From assembly GCF_044324875.1 (NCBI RefSeq), contig NZ_CP172185.1: a DNA stretch of 64,000 bases; one strand, written 5' to 3'. The stretch comes from Escherichia coli. Its GTDB lineage: Bacteria > Pseudomonadota > Gammaproteobacteria > Enterobacterales > Enterobacteriaceae. Made by a program: the position numbers and the translations under genes. The notes under the pieces were generated by a model. It did not search any database and was not told where the DNA came from. It worked only from the letters and a program-made list of their open reading frames with translations. Every line of letters begins with the position of its first letter. Position 1 is the stretch's first letter. Below are positions 1,105-51,113 of this stretch, piece after piece.

Positions 1105-1208
1105 ACGTTCCTCCTTTATATGAACTCACCGGAGCAGGCTCCGGTGAGGTGTTGTGAACTTAAGTCTGGACGAAATGCCCGAAAACGAAAGTTTGAGGCG
1201 TAAAAAGC

Positions 1209-17528: not shown

Positions 17529-17777
17529 ATGTGTATTGGCGTTCCAGGCCAGGTGCTGGCTGTCGGTGAGGATATTCACCAGCTTGCGCAGGTTGAAGTA
17601 TGTGGTATCAAGCGCGACGTGAATATCGCCCTGATTTGTGAAGGTAACCCTGCCGATCTGCTGGGCCAGTGGGTGCTGGTACACGTCGGATTTGCCATGA
17701 GCATCATCGACGAAGATGAAGCCAAAGCCACATTAGACGCGCTGCGCCAAATGGATTACGACATTACCAGCGCGTGA
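17529..17777 (+). CDS. hybG: hydrogenase maturation factor (HypC paralogue)
   Basis: 82-aa ORF beginning MCIGVPGQV (the conserved MC(L/I)(G/A)(L/V)P HypC N-terminus). Confidence 0.9.
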
Positions 17778-17785
17778 TGATTAAA

Positions 17786-17815
17786 GCCGGATGCGGCGTA
17801 AATGCTTTATCCGGC
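17786..17815. repeat. REP (repetitive extragenic palindromic) element between convergent hybG and yghU
   Basis: GCCGGATGCGGCGTAAATGCTTTATCCGGC, the canonical REP pattern with imperfect dyad symmetry. Confidence 0.55.
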
Positions 17816-17846
17816 TACATAGCGATAAGCCTGCCAATGTTGCGAC

Positions 17847-18713
17847 TTACCCCTGACGCTTATCTTCCGTATTCGTCTCAAAATCACTGGCGTCATGGCG
17901 CTCATGCAACTGCTCGTTCAGCGGCCCGTTGGTGCGGTTAACAATACGCCCACGCTTCACCGCCGGACGTTCGCCCACTTCTTTCGCCCAGCGTTGTACG
18001 TGTTTATAACTTCCCGCATCCAGAAACTCTGCGGCATCATACACGCCGCCTAACACCACGTTGCCAAACCACGGCCAAATCGCCATATCCGCAATGGTGT
18101 ACTCATCGCCCGCAACAAACTTATGCTGCGCCAGTTGCTTATCCAGCACGTCGAGCAGGCGCTTGGCTTCCATGGTAAAGCGATTGATGGCGTACTCAAT
18201 TTTCACCGGCGCGTAATGGTAAAAGTGACCAAAACCACCGCCGAGAAACGGCGCAGCACCCTGTAACCAGAACAACCAGTTCATTGCTTCAGTACGCTTT
18301 GCCAGATCCTGCGGCAGGAAGTAGCCAAATTTCTCCGCCAGATAAAGCAGAATCGATCCAGACTCAAACACGCGGATCGGCGGATTATGCGTATGATCGC
18401 GCAGCGCCGGGATCTTCGAGTTTGGGTTTACTTCGACAAAACCGCTGGAGAATTGATCGCCATCGCCTATGCGTATCAGCCAGGCATCGTACTCTGCGCC
18501 AGTAACGCCCAGCTCCAGCAGCTCCTCAAGCATAATCGTTACTTTCTGACCGTTCGGCGTTCCCAGCGAATAGAGTTGCAGCGGATGTTTGCCCACCGGC
18601 AGCGTTTTTTCATGCGTCGGACCAGAAACCGGGCGATTGATATTGGCGAACGCGCCGCCAGCGGATTTATCCCACGTCCAGACTTTCGCGGGCTGATAAG
18701 TATTGTCTGTCAT
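17847..18713 (-). CDS. yghU: glutathione S-transferase-like protein (nu-class GST, disulfide-bond reductase)
   Basis: Start MTDNTYQPAKVWTWDKSAGGAF (codon 17 of track ORF), 288 aa. Confidence 0.9.
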   Translation of the reverse strand: MTDNTYQPAKVWTWDKSAGGAFANINRPVSGPTHEKTLPVGKHPLQLYSLGTPNGQKVTIMLEELLELGVTGAEYDAWLIRIGDGDQFSSGFVEVNPNSKIPALRDHTHNPPIRVFESGSILLYLAEKFGYFLPQDLAKRTEAMNWLFWLQGAAPFLGGGFGHFYHYAPVKIEYAINRFTMEAKRLLDVLDKQLAQHKFVAGDEYTIADMAIWPWFGNVVLGGVYDAAEFLDAGSYKHVQRWAKEVGERPAVKRGRIVNRTNGPLNEQLHERHDASDFETNTEDKRQG

Positions 18714-18917
18714 AGTGAGTTGCCTTCTCAGTGGTAGTGTTGAAGCAGTGTAGCAGGTCACTTGCTGTACAGAATGTGAATTTTTTAACCCTTTGCGCCA
18801 GCCGCTGCGATGAGGTGTATGATTAGTCTGACCTCTGTCCGGTTAATGTCGCTGAGCAGGTAATCAGAGCACAACAATTACGCCAACTGCTTAGGTTGTA
18901 TTGTTAAAGGTAAAGTG

Positions 18918-24986: not shown

Positions 24987-25031
24987 GGCTGGCGGGATAC
25001 TTTTTACTATCAACGATAAGGTCAGGCTGAA

Positions 25032-26381
25032 TTGGCGGGTTTTAACATCAAACATTGGTTTGCAGATGGCGCGTTTCGCACCATTATTCGCAATAGCGCC
25101 TGGTTAGGCTCCAGTAATGTCGTGAGCGCCTTGCTGGGTCTGTTGGCGCTCTCGTGTGCCGGTAAAGGGATGACGCCCGCCATGTTTGGCGTACTGGTGA
25201 TTGTGCAATCGTACGCCAAGTCGATCAGCGATTTTATTAAGTTTCAGACATGGCAGTTGGTGGTGCAGTACGGAACACCAGCATTAACCAACAATAATCC
25301 ACAGCAATTCCGCAATGTCGTCTCATTTTCCTTCTCGCTGGATATCGTCAGCGGCGCGGTGGCGATTGTCGGCGGCATTGCCTTACTCCCTTTTCTTTCC
25401 CATTCATTAGGTCTGGATGACCAAAGCTTTTGGCTGGCAGCGCTGTATTGCACGCTCATTCCTTCAATGGCTTCCTCCACGCCGACCGGCATTCTGCGTG
25501 CGGTAGATCGCTTCGACTTAATTGCTGTACAGCAGGCGACGAAACCTTTTCTGCGCGCAGCGGGGAGCGTCGTTGCCTGGTATTTTGACTTTGGTTTTGC
25601 GGGTTTTGTTATTGCCTGGTACGCCTCGAATCTTGTTGGCGGCACCATGTACTGGTGGTTTGCCGCACGTGAATTACGCCGCAGAAATATCCATAACGCG
25701 TTCAAATTGAATCTGTTTGAGTCTGCCCGACACATCAAAGGCGCGTGGAGTTTTGTCTGGTCAACCAACATTGCCCATTCCATCTGGTCGGCGCGTAATT
25801 CGTGCAGCACAGTGTTGGTGGGGATCGTGTTAGGACCCGCTGCCGCCGGGTTATTTAAAATCGCCATGACATTCTTCGACGCCGCCGGAACGCCAGCGGG
25901 TTTACTGGGCAAAAGTTTTTACCCAGAGGTGATGCGTTTAGATCCGCGTACCACCAGACCGTGGTTGTTAGGCGTGAAGTCAGGTTTACTGGCGGGCGGA
26001 ATCGGTATTCTGGTGGCGCTCGCGGTGTTGATCGTCGGCAAGCCGCTCATTTCGCTGGTGTTTGGCGTTAAGTATCTCGAAGCGTATGACCTGATTCAGG
26101 TGATGCTGGGCGCAATTGTGATCTCGATGCTGGGCTTCCCTCAGGAGTCATTGCTATTGATGGCGGGAAAACAGCGCGCTTTTCTCGTGGCGCAAACCAT
26201 CGCCTCAATCGGCTACATCGTATTGCTGTTCATGTTCTGTCATCTGTTTGGCGTGCTGGGGGCTGCATTTGCTTACTTCGGTGGGCAATGTCTGGATGTG
26301 GTGTTCTCGCTAATTCCGACCTTAAAGGCATTTTTTCAGCGCCATTCCTTGCTTTATAACTCAGCCGGAGAGAAATCCTGA
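25032..26381 (+). CDS. yghQ: Wzx/MurJ-like (MOP superfamily) polytopic membrane protein, putative lipid-linked substrate flippase
   Basis: Track ORF is 449 aa with a TTG start; first in-frame ATG about 46 codons in (MTPAMFGVLV). Longer than the 355-aa K-12 YghQ I remember. Start uncertain. Confidence 0.75.
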   Translation: MAGFNIKHWFADGAFRTIIRNSAWLGSSNVVSALLGLLALSCAGKGMTPAMFGVLVIVQSYAKSISDFIKFQTWQLVVQYGTPALTNNNPQQFRNVVSFSFSLDIVSGAVAIVGGIALLPFLSHSLGLDDQSFWLAALYCTLIPSMASSTPTGILRAVDRFDLIAVQQATKPFLRAAGSVVAWYFDFGFAGFVIAWYASNLVGGTMYWWFAARELRRRNIHNAFKLNLFESARHIKGAWSFVWSTNIAHSIWSARNSCSTVLVGIVLGPAAAGLFKIAMTFFDAAGTPAGLLGKSFYPEVMRLDPRTTRPWLLGVKSGLLAGGIGILVALAVLIVGKPLISLVFGVKYLEAYDLIQVMLGAIVISMLGFPQESLLLMAGKQRAFLVAQTIASIGYIVLLFMFCHLFGVLGAAFAYFGGQCLDVVFSLIPTLKAFFQRHSLLYNSAGEKS

Positions 26382-27217
26382 TGATGAGAAAATATTTCCC
26401 GCTTGAGGCGAGCGAGCGTCTATTTGTTGCGATTGAAGAAGATGATGTTGTTGATGCACAGGTCAGTTTGCCGCCGACTATCGCACTAAGTTGTACCACC
26501 GAAATCATCCATGATAATTACGCGTTATGCCTGCAATTCTGGCTCAATGGCGTCAATCGCCAGGAGTTACTGCGTTTAATATGCAAACAGGCCAAAGGCG
26601 ATGAGCTGACTGCTGATGAGCGCAAACAATTTAAATACATGCGAGCGCGCTACAAGCACCTGCGTTTTGCGCAACGGCTGTATTTAAAAAAGCATCAGGC
26701 CGGATTTTTATTCGGCAAAACGACCGTTTTTTTGGGGCGTTTTCAGGACGGCTTTCGTAACGGTAAGAAAAATATTGTGTCGTATTACGGCAACCTGTTA
26801 CGGGTTTATTTAAGCTCTCCGGTCTGGTCGTTGGTGAACTATTCATTACGCCATAGCCAGTTAGAAAGCGTAAGCGGTTTTATTGCCTATCGGCAAAAGC
26901 AAATGCATACCCTGAAAGAGATAATTGCCAAACCGCGACTAACTGGCAGGGAATTTCATGATGTGCGAAAAATCATCAGCCAGCAGGTTTCTTATTACGA
27001 CACCTTAAGATCGCTTGATCCTGAAAATAAAGAGGCGTTACTGATTTCCCGTTTTCTCGCCGCCATTAATGGTCTGATGGGGGATAAGCACGACGACATG
27101 GTGGCGGATGATATGGAAAACCGCCAGTCGTATGATGCACCGGTGGCGCTGGATAGCGATATTCGCCAGCGTTTAGAACTGCTGATTTCGCGTTTCCCAC
27201 TCTATCCGGAGCAATAA
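26381..27217 (+). CDS. hypothetical soluble protein, 278 aa, basic and predicted helical
   Basis: ATG overlaps yghQ stop (ATGA) with GGAGAGAAA Shine-Dalgarno; no family recognised. Confidence 0.6.
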   Translation: MMRKYFPLEASERLFVAIEEDDVVDAQVSLPPTIALSCTTEIIHDNYALCLQFWLNGVNRQELLRLICKQAKGDELTADERKQFKYMRARYKHLRFAQRLYLKKHQAGFLFGKTTVFLGRFQDGFRNGKKNIVSYYGNLLRVYLSSPVWSLVNYSLRHSQLESVSGFIAYRQKQMHTLKEIIAKPRLTGREFHDVRKIISQQVSYYDTLRSLDPENKEALLISRFLAAINGLMGDKHDDMVADDMENRQSYDAPVALDSDIRQRLELLISRFPLYPEQ

Positions 27218-27777
27218 TGCCATCTCGTTGGATTTTCGCTCTGATCATCGCACTCTTAGCGCCAGGCGCGGTGGCACACAATTTCGTCACTGGCAAAACG
27301 GTTACCCCTGTTTATATCCAGGAAGGCGGTGAGTTGCTTCTGAAAAGCGACGACGAAATTCACTACCAAAAGTGGAACAGCACACAGCTGGCGGGAAAAG
27401 TTCGCATTATTCAGTATATCGCCGGGCGTAAGTCGGCGAAGAAAAAGAACTCACTGTTAATTAAAGCGGTTGAAGCGGCAAACTTTCCGCAGGATCGTTT
27501 TCAGCCCACCACCATTGTGAACACCGATGATGCCATTTTTGGTACTGGCTATTTTGTCGTTGGCAAAATCGAAAAAAATAAACGCCGCTATCCGTGGGCG
27601 CAATTCGTTATTGACGGCAATGGACAGGGACGCGTTGCCTGGCGGTTGCCGGAGCAGAGTTCAACCATTCTGGTGCTGAATAAAGACGGGCAAATTCAGT
27701 GGGCAAAGGACGGCAGCCTGACGCCGGAAGAGGTAGATCATGTCATTGCGCTGGCGCAGAAACTGATCAATGAATAA
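27217..27777 (+). CDS. secreted/periplasmic protein, YtfJ-like, 186 aa
   Basis: N-terminal signal peptide MPSRWIFALIIALLAPGAVA; start overlaps previous stop (TAATG); resemblance to YtfJ is from memory. Confidence 0.55.
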   Translation: MPSRWIFALIIALLAPGAVAHNFVTGKTVTPVYIQEGGELLLKSDDEIHYQKWNSTQLAGKVRIIQYIAGRKSAKKKNSLLIKAVEAANFPQDRFQPTTIVNTDDAIFGTGYFVVGKIEKNKRRYPWAQFVIDGNGQGRVAWRLPEQSSTILVLNKDGQIQWAKDGSLTPEEVDHVIALAQKLINE

Positions 27778-27807
27778 AAAATTCAAAGGATTGAGGGCGT
27801 TAGCGAG

Positions 27808-28878
27808 ATGAAGCTGGTTGAACACTACATCATGCGTGGTACGCGCCGTCTGGTGTTGATTATCGTCGGTTTTCTGATCTTTATTTTCGCCAGCTACTCC
27901 GCACAGCGTTATCTGACCGAAGCGGCAAATGGGACATTAGCTCTTGATGTTGTGCTGGATATCGTTTTCTACAAAGTGCTGATTGCACTGGAGATGTTGT
28001 TACCTGTTGGACTGTATGTGTCAGTTGGCGTGACGCTAGGGCAGATGTATACCGATTCGGAAATTACCGCTATCTCTGCGGCGGGGGGCAGTCCGGGACG
28101 CTTGTACAAAGCCGTTCTTTATCTGGCGATACCGCTAAGTATTTTTGTCACCCTTCTGTCGATGTATGGTCGTCCGTGGGCTTATGCGCAGATTTATCAA
28201 CTGGAGCAACAGTCACAGTCGGAGCTGGATGTTCGCCAGTTGCGGGCAAAGAAATTTAACACTAACGATAACGGACGAATGATCCTTTCCCAGACGGTTG
28301 ATCAGGATAATAATCGCCTGACTGACGCGCTGATTTATACTTCTACTGCCAATCGAACCCGCATTTTCCGCGCCCGTTCGGTTGATGTGGTTGACCCATC
28401 TCCCGAGAAACCGACCGTTATGTTGCACAACGGGACAGCCTATCTTCTCGATCATCAGGGGCGTGACGACAACGAACAGATCTACCGTCATCTGCAATTA
28501 CATCTGAATCCGCTGGATCAAAGCCCTAACGTCAAACGCAAAGCGAAATCGGTCACGGAGCTGGCGCGCTCCGTCTTTCCAGCCGATCATGCCGAACTGC
28601 AATGGCGACAAAGCCGTGGCCTGACAGCATTGTTGATGGCGCTGCTGGCCATTTCATTAAGTCGGGTAAAACCGCGGCAAGGGCGATTTTCAACATTATT
28701 GCCACTGACGTTGCTGTTTATTGCCATTTTTTATGGCGGCGACGTCTGCCGTACGCTGGTGGCTAACGGCGCGATTCCCCTCATTCCTGGTTTGTGGTTA
28801 GTACCCGGACTCATGCTAATGGGCCTGCTGATGCTGGTCGCACGCGACTTCTCTTTGCTGCAGAAATTTTCCCGATGA
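27808..28878 (+). CDS. YjgP/YjgQ-family permease (LptF-like paralogue)
   Basis: 356-aa ORF with N-terminal TM cluster, long periplasmic middle region and C-terminal TM helices, the LptF/LptG architecture. Confidence 0.7.
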   Translation: MKLVEHYIMRGTRRLVLIIVGFLIFIFASYSAQRYLTEAANGTLALDVVLDIVFYKVLIALEMLLPVGLYVSVGVTLGQMYTDSEITAISAAGGSPGRLYKAVLYLAIPLSIFVTLLSMYGRPWAYAQIYQLEQQSQSELDVRQLRAKKFNTNDNGRMILSQTVDQDNNRLTDALIYTSTANRTRIFRARSVDVVDPSPEKPTVMLHNGTAYLLDHQGRDDNEQIYRHLQLHLNPLDQSPNVKRKAKSVTELARSVFPADHAELQWRQSRGLTALLMALLAISLSRVKPRQGRFSTLLPLTLLFIAIFYGGDVCRTLVANGAIPLIPGLWLVPGLMLMGLLMLVARDFSLLQKFSR

Positions 28879-29954
28879 ATGTTTTCAGTCGCTATTTAAT
28901 CCGTCATCTCTTTCTCGGTTTTGCCGCCGCCGCAGGGCTATTGCTGCCGCTTTTTACCACCTTCAACCTGATTAACGAACTGGATGATGTCAGCCCGGGT
29001 GGTTATCGCTGGACTCAGGCGGTGCTGGTGGTGCTGATGACCTTACCGCGCACACTGGTCGAACTTTCGCCGTTTATCGCATTATTGGGAGGGATTGTTG
29101 GCCTGGGGCAGTTATCGAAAAACAGTGAGCTTACCGCCATTCGCAGCACGGGGTTTTCTATCTTCCGTATTGCACTAGTGGCGCTGGTTGCCGGGATATT
29201 TTGGACTGTTTCGTTAGGCGCGATAGATGAGTGGGTGGCGTCGCCATTGCAGCAACAGGCGCTGCAAATCAAATCGACTGCCACCGCGTTGGGGGAGGAC
29301 GATGACATTACCGGCAATATGCTTTGGGCCAGGCGCGGTAATGAATTTGTGACGGTGAAATCGCTGAACGAGCAGGGCCAGCCTGTGGGCGTGGAGATAT
29401 TTCATTATCGCGACGATCTCTCGCTCGAATCCTACATTTTTGCACGCAGTGCCTCCATTGAAGACGACAAAACGTGGATCCTGCATGGTGTGAATCATAA
29501 AAAATGGTTGAATGGCAAAGAAACGCTGGAAACATCAGATAATCTTGCCTGGCAATCGGCCTTCACCAGTATGAATCTTGAAGAGTTATCGATGCCGGGA
29601 AATACTTTTTCTGTCCGTCAACTTAATCATTACATCCATTATTTGCAGGAAACTGGGCAACCCAGCAGCGAATACCGCCTTGCACTGTGGGAAAAACTGG
29701 GACAACCCATCCTGACCCTGGCGATGATTTTGCTGGCTGTGCCGTTTACCTTTAGTGCCCCGCGTTCGCCTGGGATGGGTAGCCGTCTCGCTGTAGGCGT
29801 CATCGTGGGCTTACTTACCTGGATCAGCTATCAAATCATGGTCAATCTGGGATTGCTATTTGCGTTGAACGCACCTGTTACCGCGCTCGGTTTACCGGTA
29901 GCGTTTGTGCTGGTGGCGTTGAGCCTGGTGTATTGGTATGACAGACAACATTAA
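28875..29954 (+). CDS. YjgP/YjgQ-family permease (LptG-like paralogue)
   Basis: Track ORF 28794..29954 is over-extended; start MNVFSRYLIRHLFLGF overlaps the upstream stop (ATGA), giving 359 aa with LptG-like topology. Confidence 0.7.
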   Translation: MNVFSRYLIRHLFLGFAAAAGLLLPLFTTFNLINELDDVSPGGYRWTQAVLVVLMTLPRTLVELSPFIALLGGIVGLGQLSKNSELTAIRSTGFSIFRIALVALVAGIFWTVSLGAIDEWVASPLQQQALQIKSTATALGEDDDITGNMLWARRGNEFVTVKSLNEQGQPVGVEIFHYRDDLSLESYIFARSASIEDDKTWILHGVNHKKWLNGKETLETSDNLAWQSAFTSMNLEELSMPGNTFSVRQLNHYIHYLQETGQPSSEYRLALWEKLGQPILTLAMILLAVPFTFSAPRSPGMGSRLAVGVIVGLLTWISYQIMVNLGLLFALNAPVTALGLPVAFVLVALSLVYWYDRQH

Positions 29955-29988
29955 ACCCGCCGTGGCGCAACACCACAGCGGGCTCACA

Positions 29989-31161
29989 TTACTGCTTCAG
30001 AGTAGCGAACGCTTGAATGATGGCATCAATTTGCTCACGACTGTGGGCAGCGTTTACGCTACAGCGCAGCAGCGTGATGCCTGCAGGCGCGGCAGGTGGC
30101 AGGATAAGATTCACATAAACGCCCAGCGAAATAAGCTCGCGCCAGATGCGTAAACCTTCCTCTTTCGAACCGATTATTACTGGCACTACCGGGCTAATAT
30201 GTGAACTTAACTCATAACCCAGTTTTTGCAGACCGTCATACAGATGGTTGGCATTATCCATCAGCTTTTGCCGCAACTCTGGTTGTGTAGCAATGGTTCT
30301 TAACGACGAGCGCACGGTCGCAATGCAGGACGGAGAAGGAGAGGCGGTAAAAATATACGGGCGGCTGCCGTAGCGCAGCACTTCCATCGCTTCCGAACCG
30401 ACAGCAAAACCGCCAATCGAGGCCAGACTTTTACTGAAAGTACCAACGATAATATCCACATCATCTTCAACGCCAACGGCTTCAGCCAGTCCGCGCCCCG
30501 TTGCGCCTAACACGCCAAACGAATGCGCTTCATCGACAATCAAATAACCACCGAGACGACGTTTGATATCAACAATTTCCGCCAGCGGCGCAACGTCACC
30601 GAGCATACTGTAGATGCCTTCAACGATGATAATCGCCTCTTTTGCCCGTTCACCGAGGCGAACCATGCGCCGTTCCAGATCTTTAGCATCGTTATGGCGG
30701 AAACGAATAATTTCCGCGCCACCGAGAGAACAGGCGTCATAAATACTGGCGTGGCTGTCGGCATCCAGTAACACCACGGCGTTATGGTCGGCAAGTGCGC
30801 TGATGACGCCTAAATTAGCGGTATAACCGGTTGAAAAAACGATAGCGGTAGGGCGATTAAAAAACTCGGCGATCTCTTTCTCTAACGCCAGATGCGGCGC
30901 ATAACTGCCGTTTGCCATACGAGAACCGGTGGTGCCGGTGCCTTGGGCCGCTAACGCTGCCTGACCTTCGGCGATGGCATCATGATTGAAGGTTAATCCG
31001 AGATAATTATTGGTCCCGGCCAGAATCACTTTTTTATTGCCGATCCGGCCTTCGGTGGCGGAATACACTTCATCAATACAGGTACCAAACGGCGTTAACC
31101 CGTTGTCACTAAATTGCAGTCGCTCGCCAGCAAGACGCGCATATTTATCGTATAGCCCCAT
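29989..31161 (-). CDS. PLP-dependent alpha-oxoamine synthase, serine-palmitoyltransferase-like
   Basis: 390 aa; motifs DEAHSFG and VGTFSKSLASIGGF (PLP lysine about residue 244, codon near 30430..30432). Confidence 0.8.
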   Translation of the reverse strand: MGLYDKYARLAGERLQFSDNGLTPFGTCIDEVYSATEGRIGNKKVILAGTNNYLGLTFNHDAIAEGQAALAAQGTGTTGSRMANGSYAPHLALEKEIAEFFNRPTAIVFSTGYTANLGVISALADHNAVVLLDADSHASIYDACSLGGAEIIRFRHNDAKDLERRMVRLGERAKEAIIIVEGIYSMLGDVAPLAEIVDIKRRLGGYLIVDEAHSFGVLGATGRGLAEAVGVEDDVDIIVGTFSKSLASIGGFAVGSEAMEVLRYGSRPYIFTASPSPSCIATVRSSLRTIATQPELRQKLMDNANHLYDGLQKLGYELSSHISPVVPVIIGSKEEGLRIWRELISLGVYVNLILPPAAPAGITLLRCSVNAAHSREQIDAIIQAFATLKQ

Positions 31162-31409
31162 TATTTATTCTCCAGCCATGGAAGTAGTGTTTCCATTAAT
31201 TGCGCAGGGGTTTTGACATCCAGCAGAATATTAATAGGAATGGAAATATCGAATCTGTCTTCCAGCATCATTAAGAGATCCATCACTTTGATCGACTCCA
31301 GGCCAAGATCGTTGACGAGATCGCTGTCGGGCTTAATTTCCACACCGTTTTCGACCAAATCCTGTAAACAGGAAAGGATGTAATCCATTACTATTTCACG
31401 ATTTACCAT
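31161..31409 (-). CDS. acyl carrier protein (dedicated, 82 aa)
   Basis: Small acidic protein with DLGLESIKVMDL (candidate phosphopantetheine serine); stop overlaps the downstream synthase start. Confidence 0.7.
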   Translation of the reverse strand: MVNREIVMDYILSCLQDLVENGVEIKPDSDLVNDLGLESIKVMDLLMMLEDRFDISIPINILLDVKTPAQLMETLLPWLENK

Positions 31410-31440
31410 AGAAACGTTAACACACCTTTAAACAAGACAA

Positions 31441-32355
31441 TCAAAATAGCCCGTTGCGTAATGCGTGTTCCAGGCTAATCCCGGGAAACCAATTAATATC
31501 TTCAGAAATACGGTTATTACTTGCTGACCAGTCGGCGTGGGTTAATTCACGGATTTTCGAGCGGGTCAGCATAGGTTCTTTACCTGCCAGGCGACTCAAC
31601 GTGGTACTGATATCCGCAAGGCAGGTGAGTACCGACAGAGGAATACCAACCATTCGAACGGAACCACAACGGGCGTCGGCGGCAAGCTGTCTTACGCGTT
31701 GCCAGTCATAGCCGCCGGCGACGCCATCGCATAATTCATAGGTTTGCGTCTGTACAGTTTCGGCGCTTAACCACTGCCCCACGGCTTGCGCGAAATCGGT
31801 GACGTGCAGGAAAGAGAGCTGTGTATCTGGCGCACCAAGTCGTGGCAGTAGGCCGCGCAGCATCCAGTCAAACAGCGGTTTTAACTCTTTATCGCCGGGA
31901 CCATACACGGCTGTCGGGCGAAAAATGCCCAGCGTAATTTCGTCAGCCATTGCGGTCAGTCGTTGTTCGGCGACGTGTTTGGAATTTGCGTACCAGGAGA
32001 GTTCGGGATGGCGCGCCGCCAGCGAAGAGATAAACAGAAAACGTTGGCAAAAGCCGCTCTCTTTTGCCGCTTGCATCAGGCGCAGGCTGCCGTCAACGTT
32101 ACAGCGGGTAAAAATCTCTTCTTTGTGTCCGCGCACTTGTCCGGCGCAATGGACCACCGCGCTGGCTCCGGCAACCAGTTCGCTAAGCGAATGTGTATCT
32201 TCCAGCGAACCGCGCACCCAGATGAGATTATCATTGACGTGAGCGCGGGCAGTACGCGTCAATGCGCGAACGTGAAAGCCGCGGGCGAGCAGGTTATCGA
32301 TAATATATTTACCGATAAACCCGGTAGCGCCCGTCACCGCGACAGTTTGATTCAT
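31441..32355 (-). CDS. NAD(P)-dependent epimerase/dehydratase-family (extended SDR) oxidoreductase, putative keto-reductase
   Basis: 304 aa; Rossmann VTGATGFIGKYI, catalytic YANSK; start overlaps upstream ligase stop by 4 nt. Confidence 0.75.
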   Translation of the reverse strand: MNQTVAVTGATGFIGKYIIDNLLARGFHVRALTRTARAHVNDNLIWVRGSLEDTHSLSELVAGASAVVHCAGQVRGHKEEIFTRCNVDGSLRLMQAAKESGFCQRFLFISSLAARHPELSWYANSKHVAEQRLTAMADEITLGIFRPTAVYGPGDKELKPLFDWMLRGLLPRLGAPDTQLSFLHVTDFAQAVGQWLSAETVQTQTYELCDGVAGGYDWQRVRQLAADARCGSVRMVGIPLSVLTCLADISTTLSRLAGKEPMLTRSKIRELTHADWSASNNRISEDINWFPGISLEHALRNGLF

Positions 32356-34073
32356 GCCAGGGATTCCTGCACATGAAGGCTTGCAGCATAAGCCTTCTGA
32401 TAGCGTTTTTTCGCTTCCGCACGGGCAGGCTTGCCGGAGGACGTTCGGGGAATACTGTGGGGCGGCAACAGATCGATAGCCGCGGTCACGCCAAATTCGC
32501 TTTGGATCCGTGCTGCCAGCGCGTGGATAAGCTGCCCGCGACGTTCTTCATCGCTGATCCGACACTGGATCTGCAAAATGATTTTTTCCTGGGCGGTAAC
32601 AAAAGCAATCGCATCGCCAGAATGAATTTCCGGTTCCTGTTCCGCAATATATTCAATATCTTGCGGCCAGATATTGCGGCCACGAATAATAATCAGATCT
32701 TTAATGCGTCCGGTGACATACAGATAACCGTCCAGCAGATAACCGAGGTCGCCGGTGTCTAACCAGCCCGTCGCGGCAATCTCGTCTTGTGAAATCTGGT
32801 CGCCAAAGTAACCGCTCATCAGGCTAGGGCCGGAGATGCAAATATGGCCTACCACACGTTCCGCGACAGGTATACCTGCTTCATTGCGGATTTCAATGCC
32901 ATGTTCCGGCAACGCTTTACCGCAGTTGACGAAAGTCGATACGGCGCGTGTTTCAGCATCCGGCGCGACGGCTTTGCCCTGATATTCGAGGATGTCGCGA
33001 TCCACTTCGTTAACCACAACCCCGGAAGCTTCATCAGAGAAGCTGACAGCCAGCGCATTTTCTGCCAGTCCGTAGCACGGCATGAACGTTTTATCGTCAA
33101 AGTTAACCTGACGAAAACATTCAGCGAATTGATGGAGTTGTTCTGCGGAGATCGGTTCTGCGCCAATACCAGCGACGCGCCAGCAGGAAAGATCCAGTTC
33201 AGCGAGATCTTTTTCATTCACGCGGCGCTGGCACAATTCATAGCCAAACGGCGGCGCAACGGAAACGGTGCCGCGATTTTTACTGATCAATTTAAGCCAT
33301 TGCAGAGGACGCATGGCAAAATCCTGAGTGCGCAAATAATCTACTGAGAGCTGCGTGGCGACGGGGGTCAGGAGAAAGCCGACCAGTCCCATATCATGGT
33401 AGAAAGGCAGCCAGGAGACGCAGCGGTCGCCAGGGCGTAATTTAATGCCATCGTGGCTTATAGCACGTAGATTAGCCATCACTTCGCGATGGGTGATAAT
33501 GACGCCACGGGGAAAACGGGTGCTGCCGGAGGTGTACTGGAGGTAGGCGATATCGTTCGGAACTGGACGCTGGAGTGCAACATCGGCTTCCGGTAATGCC
33601 TTAAACCAGGCGTGGCTTAAAACATGTAATTCGGGTTTGTTATGCGTCGCGGCATTGACCAGCGGTAACCACTCATCACCAGTGATAATGGCTGCGGGCT
33701 GGCAACTTGCCAGTAAACCCTGCAGTTTGGCGCTCCAGGAATCCCGCTGACCGACGCCCATTGGAATCGCCAACGGGACGGCGACTAAGCCGGCATACTG
33801 GCAGGAAAAAAAAGCCTCTACGAACCCGCTACTGGTTTCGGCAATCAGCGCCACGCGATCGCCTTTTTTCAGGTTCAGCGATAACAACCGCTTCGCACCA
33901 GCTTCGGCACGCGCTTTTAACGTCTGATATTCCAGTTGATCTTCAAGTTGGCAACGTCTGTCATAAAAATTCATTCCGGCGCTACTCAGAGCGGCGTAGT
34001 CCAAAGCATCAACCAGCGTTGGAAAATCGGCATAGCGCATAGGTAGGGAATGCGTAAAGATTTTATTAGACAT
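32352..34073 (-). CDS. fatty acyl-AMP ligase / acyl-ACP synthetase-type adenylating enzyme
   Basis: Track ORF 32352..34100 (582 aa); AMP-binding motif YTSGSTRFPRGV. Start uncertain (candidates at 34100, 34073, 34040); 34073 ATG chosen. Confidence 0.75.
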   Translation of the reverse strand: MSNKIFTHSLPMRYADFPTLVDALDYAALSSAGMNFYDRRCQLEDQLEYQTLKARAEAGAKRLLSLNLKKGDRVALIAETSSGFVEAFFSCQYAGLVAVPLAIPMGVGQRDSWSAKLQGLLASCQPAAIITGDEWLPLVNAATHNKPELHVLSHAWFKALPEADVALQRPVPNDIAYLQYTSGSTRFPRGVIITHREVMANLRAISHDGIKLRPGDRCVSWLPFYHDMGLVGFLLTPVATQLSVDYLRTQDFAMRPLQWLKLISKNRGTVSVAPPFGYELCQRRVNEKDLAELDLSCWRVAGIGAEPISAEQLHQFAECFRQVNFDDKTFMPCYGLAENALAVSFSDEASGVVVNEVDRDILEYQGKAVAPDAETRAVSTFVNCGKALPEHGIEIRNEAGIPVAERVVGHICISGPSLMSGYFGDQISQDEIAATGWLDTGDLGYLLDGYLYVTGRIKDLIIIRGRNIWPQDIEYIAEQEPEIHSGDAIAFVTAQEKIILQIQCRISDEERRGQLIHALAARIQSEFGVTAAIDLLPPHSIPRTSSGKPARAEAKKRYQKAYAASLHVQESLA

Positions 34074-34444
34074 ATACACCACGAAAAAATTGGATATCAA
34101 AAATAAAATGACAATAATGCGGTGGATTATATAGGCATAAAAGATAAATGAGATAGTATTTTCATCAGTGTGAAAATGAACATTGATTTAAATAATGAGT
34201 TTGAGTTTTTTTGTTTTTATTGTGAATGATATTTAATTTATGAATGTATTAAGAAGAAGCCTTGTCCGGTCGCCTTAAATCGACAAAAGGCATTGTGGCG
34301 CTTCTGTGTAGTCTCTGACCTTATCGTAATCATTAATAAATACTATTTATTCGTCGTTTGTATTCATTGGGTTGATTATTAAGGTGCCGTTCGTTGCTGT
34401 TGCAACCTGTTTGTCACCGTTAATTATTTGTTACCCACAGAACT
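34074..34444. promoter_or_regulatory. AT-rich divergent control region between the ligase operon and yghO
   Basis: About 370 bp non-coding and strongly AT-rich, between divergently oriented starts. Confidence 0.45.
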
Positions 34445-43110: not shown

Positions 43111-43425
43111 TATGATAGTAACTGCGGTAGTACATTTATCCCGGAAATAACCGGAGCGATTATCAGGGTTTAACAATATTAAATACCCGTAGCGCATTAC
43201 TAGCGGGCCTAAAACAACAATATGGACATCTTAACGATATTCTGCGCCTGCGTGTGCGGAACAGAAACACTTACCCGATATACTTGTTATGCCAGAGGTA
43301 GCAATTGCGTTAGCAGCGTACTGTTGCTGTAAAGTATAACGCCTATATTTTACAGTTCAGTCCTCTTTTGCTTATTACAACCTTAAGTATATCAAGCATA
43401 TAAAGATAATAAGAGACTGAACAAT

Positions 43426-45144: not shown

Positions 45145-45593
45145 TACATTTACATTATTCTGTCTTATTAATTGAAAATTATTTCCCTCTTTATTATCCA
45201 TGCAGCAATAATGTTTTGCGTTCAGATAACCTGCTAAATAATTAAGAACGTGAGAATATCTATTTTTTTTATCACGCAAAACAAGTTTGTACTAATTATG
45301 TTCGCTTGATGAGCAAACACCGTGCTATCTGTTGCTTTTGCAATCGCAATCGTTAAAACTATCAACAACTTGGGATAGTTACATTGTGAATAATTGTTAC
45401 TTTTTTGTTTGTTGAATCTTTTTATAAATACCCCGTCTGACATCGAATAGGGGATATTCTTATAAATTTCACCTGTTTCGTTATCAATAATGCAGTTTTT
45501 TAAGAATGGAGGAAGTTATTAGAGAAGATAAAGCATAAAACTATTTCTCCCAGTTACGAATTTTTTAACATTGTTTTGTCACTTGCGTTATTA

Positions 45594-48500
45594 ATGAATA
45601 AGAAATTTAAATATAAGAAATCGCTTTTAGCGGCTATTTTGAGCGCAACCCTGTTAGCCGGTTGTGATGGCGGTGGTTCCGGATCTTCCTCCGATACGCC
45701 GCCTGTAGATTCTGGAACAGGGTCTTTGCCGGAAGTGAAACCTGATCCAACACCAAACCCGGAGCCGACGCCTGAGCCAACGCCGGACCCAGAACCTACG
45801 CCGGAACCGATACCTGATCCTGAGCCAACACCAGAACCGGAGCCAGAACCTGTTCCTACGAAAACGGGTTATCTGACCCTGGGCGGAAGCCAGCGGGTAA
45901 CTGGTGCTACCTGTAATGGTGAATCCAGCGATGGCTTTACATTTACACCTGGTGAGGACGTTACTTGCGTGGCGGGTAACACGACAATTGCCACCTTCAA
46001 CACTCAGTCAGAAGCTGCGCGTAGCCTGCGTGCGGTTGAAAAAGTGTCGTTTAGTCTTGAGGACGCGCAAGAACTGGCGGCTTCCGACAATAAGAAAAGC
46101 AATGCGGTTTCGCTGGTAACGTCCAGTAACAGCTGTCCGGCGGATACAGAACAGGTTTGCCTGACGTTCTCCTCTGTGATCGAGAGTAAACGTTTCGACT
46201 CGCTGTATAAGCAAATCGATCTGGCACCGGAAGAGTTCAAAAAGCTGGTCAATGAAGAGGTGGAAAACAATGCCGCGACCGATAAAGCGCCATCCACTCA
46301 TACTTCACCGGTCGTGCCTGTCACCACGCCGGGAACAAAACCGGATCTGAACGCCTCCTTCGTGTCGGCTAACGCGGAACAGTTTTATCAGTATCAACCT
46401 ACGGAAATCATTCTCTCCGAAGGCCGACTGGTAGATAGCCAGGGATATGGTGTTGCTGGCGTCAACTACTACACCAATTCAGGCCGTGGCGTGACAGGGG
46501 AAAATGGTGAATTTTCCTTTAGCTGGGGCGAAACCATCTCCTTTGGTATCGATACCTTTGAACTGGGTTCAGTGCGCGGCAATAAGTCGACCATTGCGCT
46601 GACTGAACTGGGTGATGAAGTTCGCGGGGCGAATATTGATCAGCTTATTCATCGCTATTCGACGACCGGGCAAAATAATACCCGTGTTGTTCCGGACGAT
46701 GTACGCAAGGTCTTTGCCGAATATCCCAACGTGATCAACGAGATTATCAATCTCTCGTTATCCAACGGTGCGACGCTGGATGAAGGTGAGCAAGTTGTTA
46801 ATCTGCCAAACGAATTTATTGAGCAGTTTAAGACGGGTCAAGCCAAAGAGATCGATACCGCGATTTGTGCGAAAACCGACGGTTGTAACGAGGCTCGCTG
46901 GTTCTCGCTGACGACGCGCAATGTTAATGACGGCCAGATTCAGGGCGTTATTAACAAGCTGTGGGGTGTGGATACAAGTTACAAATCTGTCAGCAAGTTC
47001 CATGTATTCCATGACTCTACCAACTTCTATGGCAGCACCGGTAATGCGCGCGGTCAGGCGGTGGTGAATATCTCCAACGCGGCATTCCCGATTCTGATGG
47101 CGCGTAATGATAAAAACTACTGGCTGGCCTTCGGCGAAAAACGCGCCTGGGATAAAAATGAGCTGGCGTACATTACGGAAGCGCCTTCCATTGTGCGCCC
47201 GGAAAACGTGACTCGCGAAACTGCCACCTTCAACCTGCCGTTTATCTCGCTGGGGCAAGTCGGCAAAGGTAAGCTGATGGTTATCGGTAACCCGCACTAC
47301 AACAGCATTCTGCGCTGTCCGAACGGTTACAGCTGGGAAGGCGGTGTTGATAAAAACGGTCAGTGTACGCGTAACAGTGATTCTAATGATATGAAGCACT
47401 TTATGCAGAACGTGTTGCGCTATCTGTCCAACGATAAATGGACGCCGGACGCGAAAGCCAGCATGACCGTAGGCACCAACCTGGATACTGTCTATTTCAA
47501 ACGTCATGGTCAGGTTACAGGAAACAGTGCTGAGTTCGGCTTCCATCCGGATTTTGCGGGTATCTCCGTTGAGCATTTAAGTAGCTATGGCGATCTCGAT
47601 CCGCAGAAAATGCCGCTGCTGATCCTTAACGGCTTTGAGTATGTGACTCAGGTGGGGGGCGATCCCTATGCAGTGCCTCTGCGTGCAGATACCAGCAAAC
47701 CGAAGCTGACCCAGCAGGATGTGACCGATTTGATCGCCTATATGAACAAAGGTGGCTCGGTGCTGATCATGGAAAACGTGATGAGCAATCTTAAGGAAGA
47801 GAGCGCGTCTGGCTTTGTGCGTCTGCTGGATGCCGCAGGCCTGTCAATGGCACTGAACAAGTCGGTGGTGAATAACGATCCGCAGGGTTATCCAGACCGC
47901 GTGCGCCAGCGTCGAGCGACTGGCATTTGGGTTTATGAACGTTATCCGGTTGTGGAGGGTGAGCTGCCGTACACCATTGATTCCAAAACAGGAAAAGTTA
48001 CCTGGAAATATCAGATTGATAACAAGCCTGATAAGAAACCGAAACTGGAAGTAGCCAGCTGGCAAGAAGAGGTTGATGGTAAACAGGTAACTCAATTCGC
48101 CTTTATCGATGAAGCCGACCACAAAACGACTGAATCTCTGGATGCTGCGAAGAAGAAAATTCTGGAAAAATTCAAGGGATTAGAGGAGTGTAAGTACTCG
48201 ACATATCACTACGAAATCAACTGCCTGGAATACCGTCCTGGCACGAACGTTCCGGTTACTGGTGGCATGTATGTTCCGCGCTATACGCAACTGAATCTCA
48301 GCGCCGACACTGCAAAAGCGATGGTGCAGGCGGCGGATTTAGGCACCAACATTCAGCGTCTGTATCAGCATGAGCTCTACTTCCGGACCAATGGTCGCAA
48401 AGGTGAGCGTCTGAGCAGCGTCGATCTGGAACGTCTGTACCAGAACATGTCGGTCTGGCTGTGGAATGAAATTGAATACAGCTATGACAGCAGCAAGGAA

Positions 48501-50156
48501 GACGAGCTGGGCTTTAAAACGTTCACCGAGTTCCTGAACTGCTACGCCAACGATGCCTATACTGGCGGCACGCAGTGTTCTGATGAGCTGAAAAAATCGC
48601 TGGTCGATAACAACATGATCTACGGCGAGAAGAGCGTTAATAAAGCGGGCATGATGAACCCCAGCTATCCGCTCAACTATATGGAAAAACCGCTGACGCG
48701 CCTGATGCTGGGTCGTTCCTGGTGGGATCTGAACATCAAAGTTGATGTCGAGAAGTATCCGGGAGCGGTATCGGCAGAAGGTGAGAAGGTTACTGAAACC
48801 ATCAGCCTGTACTCGAATCCGACCAAATGGTTTGCGGGTAACATGCAGTCTACTGGCCTATGGGCTCCGGCTCAGAAAGAGGTCACCATTGAGTCTTCTG
48901 CATCAGTTCCTGTGACTGTCACCGTGGCGCTGGCCGACGATCTGACCGGACGCGAGAAGCATGAAGTCGCGCTGAACCGTCCGCCAAAAGTGACGAAAAC
49001 CTATGATCTGAAAGCCAATGATAAGGTGACCTTCAAGGTGCCTTACGGTGGTCTGATTTATATCAAGGGCAACAGCCCAAAGAATGAGTCAGCCGAATTC
49101 ACCTTTACTGGTGTGGTAAAAGCGCCGTTCTATAAAGACGGCGAATGGAAAAACGCTCTGAACTCCCCTGCGCCGCTGGGCGAGCTGGAATCAGACGCTT
49201 TCGTTTATACCACGCCGAAGAAGAACCTTGAGGCCAGCAATTTCACTGGTGGTGTAGCAGAATTCGCTAAAGATCTGGATACCTTTGCCAGCTCGATGAA
49301 TGACTTCTACGGTCGTAATGATGAAGACGGTAAGCACCGGATGTTTACCTATAAAAACTTGACGGGGCACAAGCATCGTTTCACCAACGATGTGCAGATC
49401 TCCATCGGTGATGCGCACTCTGGTTATCCGGTAATGAACAGCAGCTTCTCGACGAACAGCACCACGCTGCCGACGACGCCGCTGAACGACTGGCTGATCT
49501 GGCACGAAGTTGGTCACAACGCCGCCGAAACGCCGCTGACTGTTCCTGGCGCAACTGAAGTAGCGAACAACGTGCTGGCGCTGTACATGCAGGATCGCTA
49601 TCTCGGCAAGATGAACCGTGTCGCTGACGACATTACCGTCGCGCCGGAATATCTGGAGGAGAGCAACGGTCAGGCATGGGCGCGCGGCGGTGCGGGTGAC
49701 CGTCTGCTGATGTACGCACAGCTGAAAGAGTGGGCAGAGAAAAACTTTGATATCAAGACGTGGTATCCAGATGGCAATCTGCCAGCGTTCTACAGCGAGC
49801 GTGAAGGGATGAAAGGCTGGAACCTGTTCCAGTTGATGCATCGTAAAGCACGCGGCGATGAGGTTGGCAAAACCAAGTTTGGCGAAAGAAATTACTGTGC
49901 CGAATCCAACGGTAACGCTGCCGACACGCTGATGCTGTGTGCATCCTGGGTCGCCCAGACGGATCTTTCGGAGTTCTTTAAGAAATGGAATCCAGGTGCG
50001 AATGCTTACCAGCTGCCGGGGGCGAGCGAGATGAGCTTCGAGGGCGGTGTGAGCCAGTCGGCGTACAACACGCTGGCGTCACTCAAGCTGCCGAAACCGG
50101 AACAGGGACCGGAAACCATTAACAAGGTTACCGAGCATAAGATGTCTGTCGAGTAA
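45594..50156 (+). CDS. sslE: SslE/YghJ secreted lipoprotein, M60-like zinc metalloprotease (mucinase), substrate of T2SS-beta
   Basis: About 1520 aa from MNKKFKYKKSLLAAILSATLLAGC (lipobox LLAGC); Pro/Glu/Thr-rich linker; HEVGH zinc-binding motif at about 49503..49517. Confidence 0.9.
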   Translation: MNKKFKYKKSLLAAILSATLLAGCDGGGSGSSSDTPPVDSGTGSLPEVKPDPTPNPEPTPEPTPDPEPTPEPIPDPEPTPEPEPEPVPTKTGYLTLGGSQRVTGATCNGESSDGFTFTPGEDVTCVAGNTTIATFNTQSEAARSLRAVEKVSFSLEDAQELAASDNKKSNAVSLVTSSNSCPADTEQVCLTFSSVIESKRFDSLYKQIDLAPEEFKKLVNEEVENNAATDKAPSTHTSPVVPVTTPGTKPDLNASFVSANAEQFYQYQPTEIILSEGRLVDSQGYGVAGVNYYTNSGRGVTGENGEFSFSWGETISFGIDTFELGSVRGNKSTIALTELGDEVRGANIDQLIHRYSTTGQNNTRVVPDDVRKVFAEYPNVINEIINLSLSNGATLDEGEQVVNLPNEFIEQFKTGQAKEIDTAICAKTDGCNEARWFSLTTRNVNDGQIQGVINKLWGVDTSYKSVSKFHVFHDSTNFYGSTGNARGQAVVNISNAAFPILMARNDKNYWLAFGEKRAWDKNELAYITEAPSIVRPENVTRETATFNLPFISLGQVGKGKLMVIGNPHYNSILRCPNGYSWEGGVDKNGQCTRNSDSNDMKHFMQNVLRYLSNDKWTPDAKASMTVGTNLDTVYFKRHGQVTGNSAEFGFHPDFAGISVEHLSSYGDLDPQKMPLLILNGFEYVTQVGGDPYAVPLRADTSKPKLTQQDVTDLIAYMNKGGSVLIMENVMSNLKEESASGFVRLLDAAGLSMALNKSVVNNDPQGYPDRVRQRRATGIWVYERYPVVEGELPYTIDSKTGKVTWKYQIDNKPDKKPKLEVASWQEEVDGKQVTQFAFIDEADHKTTESLDAAKKKILEKFKGLEECKYSTYHYEINCLEYRPGTNVPVTGGMYVPRYTQLNLSADTAKAMVQAADLGTNIQRLYQHELYFRTNGRKGERLSSVDLERLYQNMSVWLWNEIEYSYDSSKEDELGFKTFTEFLNCYANDAYTGGTQCSDELKKSLVDNNMIYGEKSVNKAGMMNPSYPLNYMEKPLTRLMLGRSWWDLNIKVDVEKYPGAVSAEGEKVTETISLYSNPTKWFAGNMQSTGLWAPAQKEVTIESSASVPVTVTVALADDLTGREKHEVALNRPPKVTKTYDLKANDKVTFKVPYGGLIYIKGNSPKNESAEFTFTGVVKAPFYKDGEWKNALNSPAPLGELESDAFVYTTPKKNLEASNFTGGVAEFAKDLDTFASSMNDFYGRNDEDGKHRMFTYKNLTGHKHRFTNDVQISIGDAHSGYPVMNSSFSTNSTTLPTTPLNDWLIWHEVGHNAAETPLTVPGATEVANNVLALYMQDRYLGKMNRVADDITVAPEYLEESNGQAWARGGAGDRLLMYAQLKEWAEKNFDIKTWYPDGNLPAFYSEREGMKGWNLFQLMHRKARGDEVGKTKFGERNYCAESNGNAADTLMLCASWVAQTDLSEFFKKWNPGANAYQLPGASEMSFEGGVSQSAYNTLASLKLPKPEQGPETINKVTEHKMSVE

Positions 50157-50164
50157 TCCTGTAT

Positions 50165-50194
50165 GCCGGATAAGGCGTTCACACCGCATCCGGC
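50165..50194. repeat. REP element (with a second degenerate copy at about 50250..50283) between sslE and pppA
   Basis: GCCGGATAAGGCGTTCACACCGCATCCGGC is the canonical REP sequence; downstream TGCAGGCCCGCATCCGGCAAG is a partial second unit. Confidence 0.6.
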
Positions 50195-50303
50195 ATGAAA
50201 TAAGGCGCACCGGGTTGCGCCAGCTTATCGGGCCTGGAGGAAAGCCGTATGGCATACACTTGCAGGCCCGCATCCGGCAAGTTACAACAAACAACCTTTA
50301 ACC

Positions 50304-51113
50304 ATGCTTTTTGATGTTTTTCAGCAATACCCCGCGGCGATGCCCGTCCTGGCTACCGTCGGAGGATTGATTATCGGCAGTTTTTTGAATGTGGTGATTT
50401 GGCGTTACCCCATCATGCTGCGCCAACAAATGGCGGAGTTTCACGGTGAAATGCCGAGTACGCAGTCAAAAATAAGCCTGGCGCTGCCACGCTCGCACTG
50501 TCCGCATTGCCAGCAGACTATCCGCGTTCGTGACAATATTCCGCTGCTCTCCTGGCTGATGCTCAAAGGGCGCTGCCGCGACTGTCAGGCGAAAATCAGC
50601 AAGCGTTATCCGCTGGTGGAGTTATTGACGGCACTCGCTTTTTTGCTGGCGAGTCTGGTGTGGCCAGAAAGTGGATGGGGGCTGGCGGTGATGATATTAT
50701 CCGCCTGGCTGATTGCCGCGAGCATCATTGACCTCGATAACCAATGGCTGCCCGATGTTTTTACTCAGGGCGTATTGTGGACCGGGCTGATTGCGGCATG
50801 GGCGCAGCAGAGTCCGTTAACGCTACAAGACGCAGTTACCGGCGTACTGGTGGGATTTATCACTTTTTACTCCCTGCGCTGGATAGCCGGAATAGTTCTG
50901 CGTAAAGAAGCATTAGGCATGGGCGATGTATTACTCTTCGCCGCTTTAGGTGGCTGGGTGGGGGCGTTATCACTGCCCAATGTTGCTTTAATCGCCTCAT
51001 GCTGCGGCCTGATATATGCCGTTATTACAAAAAGAGGATCAACCCCGCTGCCTTTTGGACCGTGTTTAAGTCTGGGCGGTATAGCAACACTTTATCTACA
51101 GGCATTGTTTTAA
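50304..51113 (+). CDS. pppA: prepilin peptidase (GspO-type) of the T2SS-beta
   Basis: 269-aa ORF; Cys-rich CPHC...CRDC zinc-binding motif typical of type IV prepilin peptidases. Confidence 0.9.

Follow-up and report, generated by a model that had tools for sequence, protein, structure and literature searches.

REPs of Escherichia coli are hairpin-forming repeats of about 35 bases that occur in many copies per genome. They are short and non-autonomous, and are dispersed and rearranged on single-stranded DNA by the transposase RAYT/TnpA-REP. Two spacers of the 64-kb stretch of E. coli DNA analysed here (hereafter the window), one following hybG (site 1) and the other following sslE (site 2), raise the question of whether the palindromes that they contain belong to this family and whether they act on the genes that flank them. 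Both are very probably y-type REPs, with a local action that would most likely be exerted as RNA. Such REPs are well known and are ordinary genome furniture, a statement of the first-pass annotation of this DNA that holds for 17786-17815 and 50165-50194.

Identity of the palindromes past hybG and sslE

The following features delimit site 1.

17529..17777, plus strand: hybG, last gene of the hyb hydrogenase-2 operon (open reading frame and RefSeq annotation of identical DNA)
17775-17777, plus strand: TGA stop codon of hybG
17786..17818, minus strand, the plus strand carrying the inverted form (iREP): solitary y-type REP (sequence, pattern and consensus match)
17847..18713, minus strand: yghU (open reading frame 17847-18761, start placed from the annotated length of 867 nt; stop codon 17847-17849)

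The convergent genes hybG (plus strand) and yghU (minus strand) are separated by a spacer of 69 nt (17778-17846) that holds the REP, whose stem begins 8 nt past the TGA of hybG and lies 31 nt from the stop codon of yghU. The gene names are those annotated, as hypA(hybF)-hybG / yghU, in several complete genomes that are 100% identical to the window over a 1-kb stretch around site 1. On the plus strand, 17786-17815 reads GCCGGATGCGGCGTAAATGCTTTATCCGGC and is followed by TACA. On the minus strand, the element reads GTAG-CCGGAT-AA-AGCA-TTTA-CGCC-GC-ATCCGGC, in which a GTAG tag, a lower stem, an AA/GC bulge, a weakened upper stem and a loop can be recognized; an imperfect palindrome, the AA/GC bulge and GTAG are the defining features of E. 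coli REPs (PMC3333891, PMC8266576). The element differs from the canonical form by two transitions in the upper stem and by one base absent between the tag and the foot of the stem. The usual CCGGC-CTAC is here short of one C, so that the tag (17815-17818, minus strand) shares one base with the end of the stem; at this point, the alleles of strains N12 and GN02050 read CCGGCCTAC, relative to which the window has lost a C.

A degenerate y-REP pattern matches 17786-17815 without mismatch, and its sole other match in the 64 kb, with one mismatch, is at 50165-50194 (minus strand); it finds nothing in 100 dinucleotide shuffles. Similarly, blastn-short searches with the y, z1 and z2 consensuses yield only two full-length matches in the 64 kb, which are sites 1 and 2. 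Site 1 is identical to the y consensus at 28 of 30 positions (E 8e-8) and site 2 at 29 of 31 (E 2e-8). In both copies, AA can be read opposite GC, both fold as stem-loops and both are extragenic, lying between annotated genes. Furthermore, a 38-nt query derived from site 1 finds at least 32 places per genome (median at least 40, the search being capped at 40 places) in 5425 of the 5426 complete E. coli genomes, the exact 38-mer of the site-1 allele being present in about 800 records. The description of 17786-17815 as a canonical REP at convergent gene ends is therefore upheld by the perfect pattern match, the agreement with the consensus, the bulge, the location outside genes and the many copies per genome, as well as by the orientation of hybG and yghU.

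The mobilizing function is not encoded nearby, at least as far as a tblastn search of the 64-kb window can detect a RayT homologue (best E 0.34). With the K-12 gene as megablast query, rayT is found in 3574 of the 5426 complete genomes (66%); about one-third of E. coli strains keep REPs in the absence of a recognizable rayT.

Site 2 is organized differently, with co-directional genes and several REP-derived sequences.

45576..50156, plus strand: sslE (yghJ) (open reading frame and annotation; TAA stop codon 50154-50156)
50161..50195, plus strand: intact y-type REP in REP orientation (sequence, pattern over 50165-50194 with one mismatch, y-consensus match)
50204..50221, no strand assigned: short hairpin GGCGCA-CCGGGT-TGCGCC (allele alignment and fold)
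50216..50236, plus strand: relic of a z1-like inverted REP, TGCGCCAGCTTATCGGGCCTG (alignment, z1 fragment match and half-site CTTATCGGGC)
50262..50279, plus strand: relic of a third REP, of y type, GCAGG joined to CCCGCATCCGGCA (alignment and exact half-site)
50304..51113, plus strand: pppA, prepilin peptidase (open reading frame and annotation)

The intact REP (50161-50195) reads GTAT-GCCGGAT-AA-GGCG-TTCA-CACC-GC-ATCCGGC-A, with a single upper-stem mismatch (CACC for CGCC), and its stem begins 8 nt past the TAA of sslE. Its 5' tetranucleotide is GTAT, to which GTAG corresponds in K-12 and STEFF_1, and which is absent from two other alleles of the allele alignment. The first-pass annotation had extended a canonical REP over about 50165..50283 and placed it, too, at convergent gene ends. 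The first claim holds for 50165-50194 only. Indeed, half-site scans and a consensus search of 50195-50283 detect no further full REP, only relics and REP-derived hairpins, and alignment with other strains shows that this segment is made of the internally deleted remnants of two more REPs. As for the second claim, it does not fit site 2, where sslE and pppA are on the same strand and are reported to belong to one polycistronic mRNA (PMC5012682).

The remnants can be read by comparison with other alleles. The hairpin at 50204-50221 was left by a 16-nt deletion of TTAACACATTTGCCCGA, a loss that includes the left arm of the z1-like REP; this arm, lost from the window, is present in K-12, STEFF_1 and Z142-7. 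Relative to the full K-12 form (TGCCCGATGCGCCTGCTTATCGGGCCTAC), the z1-like relic has thus lost its left arm and has CTGG in place of CTAC, and what remains of it includes a 13-nt match to a z1 fragment at 50223-50235 (blastn-short). In the relic of the third REP, 18 nt of the K-12 sequence GTAGGACGGATAAGGCGTTTTACGCCGCATCCAGCA are missing internally and GTAG has become GCAG, so that the right arm alone remains, with an exact 12-nt half-site at 50268-50279 (E 0.078). Read on the minus strand, the hairpin at 50204-50221 presents GGCGCAACCCGGTGCGCC followed by TTATTTCATG, a terminator-like arrangement antisense to the sslE operon; a single match of this kind is close to the chance level (mean of 0.6 in shuffled controls).

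Both elements resemble the y-type REP or palindromic unit (PU) (Bachellier et al.; Ton-Hoang et al. 2012, PMC3333891) in their length of about 35 nt, their extragenic location and their multiple copies. They share its palindrome, GCCGGAT-AA-GGCG...CGCC-GC-ATCCGGC, together with, at site 1, a GTAG tag that overlaps the stem by one base. They depart from it by the missing base at the stem foot and the two transitions of site 1, and by the GTAT and CACC of site 2. The RefSeq feature table of K-12 MG1655 has no REP feature in the hybG-yghU region, the RepRanger supplements do not mention the genes beside sites 1 and 2, and Rfam, which has no REP family, gives nothing at either site at gathering thresholds.

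Alleles of the two spacers and their insertion sequences

The hybG-yghU spacer exists in several forms. In K-12 and O157, it has 122 nt and carries a z2 REP, an 11-nt linker and a y iREP, whereas the window and SCU-172 have the y element alone; most other E. coli strains have the z2+y pair, a BIME (bacterial interspersed mosaic element), at this site. The form found in the window could result from a deletion between two GCCGGATGC direct repeats, an origin suggested by strain N12, which carries AAAGCCGGATG ahead of the z2 REP (alignment A2).

Variation is also extensive at site 2, for which seven alleles of the spacer were aligned. K-12 (DH1) has a y REP (GTAGGCCGGATAAGGCGCTCGCGCCGCATCCGGCA), the z1-like iREP and a second y REP, from which the window differs by the lack of 16 nt with the left arm of the second REP and of 18 nt inside the third. 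The spacer (50157-50303) shows at least five length variants, the region corresponding to a 901-nt query ranging from 883 to 951 nt. The first y REP is kept in all seven sampled alleles, its flanks being variable. K-12 has three intact REPs and most alleles have one; in two of the sampled alleles, the REP abuts the stop codon of sslE, with no gap.

These comparisons define the relationship of both sites with BIMEs, in which REP and iREP are paired with a linker. The orthologous K-12 spacers are of this kind, that of sslE-pppA being an atypical BIME. In contrast, neither site of the window has two or more alternating REPs with a linker, since site 1 is without its z2 partner and, of the three REPs of site 2, only the first is intact and two are internally deleted.

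Within E. coli, REP-specific insertion sequences have also landed repeatedly in the hybG-yghU spacer. The match to this spacer is split in 777 of 5417 genomes. Strain DFL.5 has an allele identical to that of site 1, with an IS3-family element with IS1397-like ends inserted in the REP loop (gcgtAAA-IS-AAAtgc). Two K-12-type alleles are split as well: that of SK1402 by an annotated IS1397 in the loop of the y REP, and that of MFDS1006657 by an IS621 (IS110 family) directly following the GTAG of the z2 REP, with AG on both sides. As IS1397 and IS621 are, in E. coli, the two insertion sequences published as REP-specific (PMC1525189), their targeting of this spacer provides independent, biological evidence for the REP identity of the palindromes. 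Any assembly or alignment of the hybG-yghU region should take this recurrent landing of IS1397 and IS621 into account.

Probable local action and competing explanations

As RNA, the site-1 palindrome has a predicted folding energy of -19.2 kcal/mol in the hybG sense (z -3.35 versus shuffled sequences) and of -14.8 kcal/mol in the yghU sense (z -2.4), the hairpin being weakened in the latter by the two stem substitutions. Both substitutions are C-to-T on the plus strand, and G.U pairs are kept only in the hybG-sense RNA. Selection on the hybG-sense strand was considered and dropped, since, for two transitions, a shared direction is expected by chance in about half of the cases. The site-2 REP folds at -18.6 kcal/mol (z -3.5), and the whole 144-nt sslE-pppA spacer at -55.6 kcal/mol, better than its shuffled controls.

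By analogy with other REPs, sites 1 and 2 would most likely act locally through RNA stabilization and interference with ribosomes. The REPs would be transcribed within the upstream message, i.e. at the 3' ends of hybG and yghU (site 1) or in the sslE-pppA intercistronic region (site 2), and would form hairpins (-15 to -19 kcal/mol) devoid of a U tract. Such a hairpin may stall 3'-to-5' exonucleases and thereby stabilize the upstream mRNA segment, which, at site 2, would be to the advantage of sslE relative to the secretion genes that follow it. The intercistronic REPs of malE-malF, studied by Newbury and Higgins in 1987, are said to cause differential mRNA stability within their operon. Site 2 resembles them by its position between co-transcribed cistrons, directly after sslE, and plausibly by the need for the secreted substrate SslE in greater amount than the downstream machinery; it differs from them in having one intact REP plus relic hairpins. 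Indeed, sslE is reported to be carried by one mRNA with pppA and the gsp (T2SS) genes, according to PMC5012682, which cites Yang et al. 2007. REP hairpins are documented as obstacles to exonucleases that degrade mRNA from its 3' end (PMC12306157) and, as summarized in the same source, deletion of a REP shortens mRNA half-life for other E. coli transcripts. The first-pass annotation, which had named both REPs as potential mRNA stabilizers, agrees with this and with the predicted hairpin stabilities.

The second component of this proposal depends on distance. As only 8 nt separate the stop codon from the stem at both sites, the terminating ribosome could be impeded, lowering the yield of HybG or SslE. 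REPs located less than 16 nt past a stop codon are reported to depress translation (Liang, Rudd & Deutscher 2015, as relayed by PMC12306157), and both stems, 8 nt past TGA and TAA, fall within this class as far as position goes. At the DNA level, REPs would in addition be hot spots of recombination and insertion, which would account for the many alleles of both spacers. The site-2 copy itself is probably no longer mobilizable by TnpA-REP because GTAT replaces GTAG, any substitution of which abolished binding and cleavage by TnpA-REP (PMC8266576).

The main rival explanation, possible but somewhat improbable, is that these true REPs are inert selfish or relic DNA without measurable effect on the neighbouring genes, persisting because they are harmless and the spacers tolerant. 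It is consistent with the great variation of both spacers in length and content among strains, with the insertion sequences that split site-1 REPs in natural strains, with the ongoing decay by deletion that the site-2 remnants show, and with the GTAT tag and stem mismatches, which suggest old, inactive copies. The high polymorphism of both spacers (solitary, z2+y or IS-disrupted forms at site 1, at least five lengths at site 2) indeed makes it less likely that a given structure is tightly constrained. However, an intact REP hairpin, at least one, is retained near the upstream stop codon in all the alleles sampled for the two spacers, and the reduced half-lives that PMC12306157 summarizes for REP deletions elsewhere in E. 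coli also weigh against inertness.

A main role at the DNA level, in which the REPs would be bound by DNA gyrase, IHF or DNA polymerase I and would organize supercoiling or the nucleoid, appears quite improbable. Binding of gyrase and IHF is assigned to the paired BIME architecture. REPs and BIMEs are published as binding sites for the three proteins (PMC1525189; PMC3333891) and the K-12 allele of site 1 has, with z2+y, the composition of a BIME-2. In the window, however, this paired architecture is absent because the partners have been lost at both sites: site 1 has one y REP but no z2, and site 2 is deprived of its z1-like partner and of 16 nt of linker.

That the hairpins are Rho-independent terminators ending the hyb, yghU and sslE transcripts is hard to credit. 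In its favour, they are G+C-rich and lie immediately past stop codons, and the 69-nt spacer of site 1 contains no other candidate for ending the two converging transcripts. Against it, neither REP hairpin has a U tract after it, a terminator scan finds nothing at site 1 on either strand and nothing in the sense direction at site 2 (its sole match there being the antisense relic hairpin 50204-50221), the sslE mRNA is reported to continue into pppA and the gsp genes (PMC5012682), and the sequences belong to a dispersed repeat family rather than to one locus. An equally slight chance attaches to a REP-derived small RNA such as naRNA4 (REP325, RF02564), whose weak matches to both REPs in a permissive Rfam search (28.1 and 29.6 bits, E about 1e-3) are explained by the shared REP hairpin: the scores reach about half of the 59.5 bits set as gathering threshold and amount to one hairpin's worth of a 77-nt two-hairpin model, each site has a single hairpin and no tandem y+z2 array, and neither spacer contains a promoter-like site.

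The reading of both elements as RNA-level REPs would have a more specific, and unlikely, extension, in which the sslE-pppA cluster is a strain-variable valve that sets the ratio of SslE to the type II secretion machinery. The intact REP and the relic hairpins would then protect sslE from 3' decay, attenuate read-through, or both. If so, the length alleles (one to three intact REPs) would contribute to the differences in SslE level reported for ExPEC, and tuning of SslE output by the cluster would, speculatively, bear on a vaccine-candidate antigen.

More simply, these REPs allow the 3' ends of hybG and sslE to be located reliably and matter little beyond annotation. Work that engineers or interprets the expression of yghU or of the hyb and sslE-T2SS operons should nevertheless take them into account, and the two hypervariable spacers could be useful for strain typing.

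Other features of the window

The gene order of the window, deduced from its correspondence with strain MEI003 and from its own open reading frames, is as follows: the hyb operon (plus strand), yghU (minus strand), gss, pitB, yghT/S/R, a strain-variable lipid/LPS-like cluster, yghO, the glc operon, glcA, sslE, pppA, gspS2, gspC-M (plus strand) and kpsM.

In the variable cluster (about 25000-34100, from yghR to yghO), the sizes of the open reading frames match those of MEI003 genes for an LPS biosynthesis protein, a YtfJ-family protein, LptF/LptG paralogues, a serine palmitoyltransferase, an acyl carrier protein, an epimerase and a fatty acyl-AMP ligase. From this correspondence in size, a sphingolipid-like or LPS-related accessory cluster is possible.

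Two small RNAs have matches in Rfam. C0719 is matched over its full length at 43126-43347 (minus strand, 294.5 bits), in the glcA-sslE intergenic region, and ES173 at 1143-1206 (minus strand, 99 bits, gathering threshold 90). At the other end of the window, a JUMPstart element (63152-63190, plus strand, 53.6 bits) is located at the 5' end of an open reading frame (63117-63995, plus strand) whose product, judged from its translation, resembles the capsule exporter KpsM. The T2SS-beta genes thus seem to be directly followed by part of a group 2 capsule (kps) locus.
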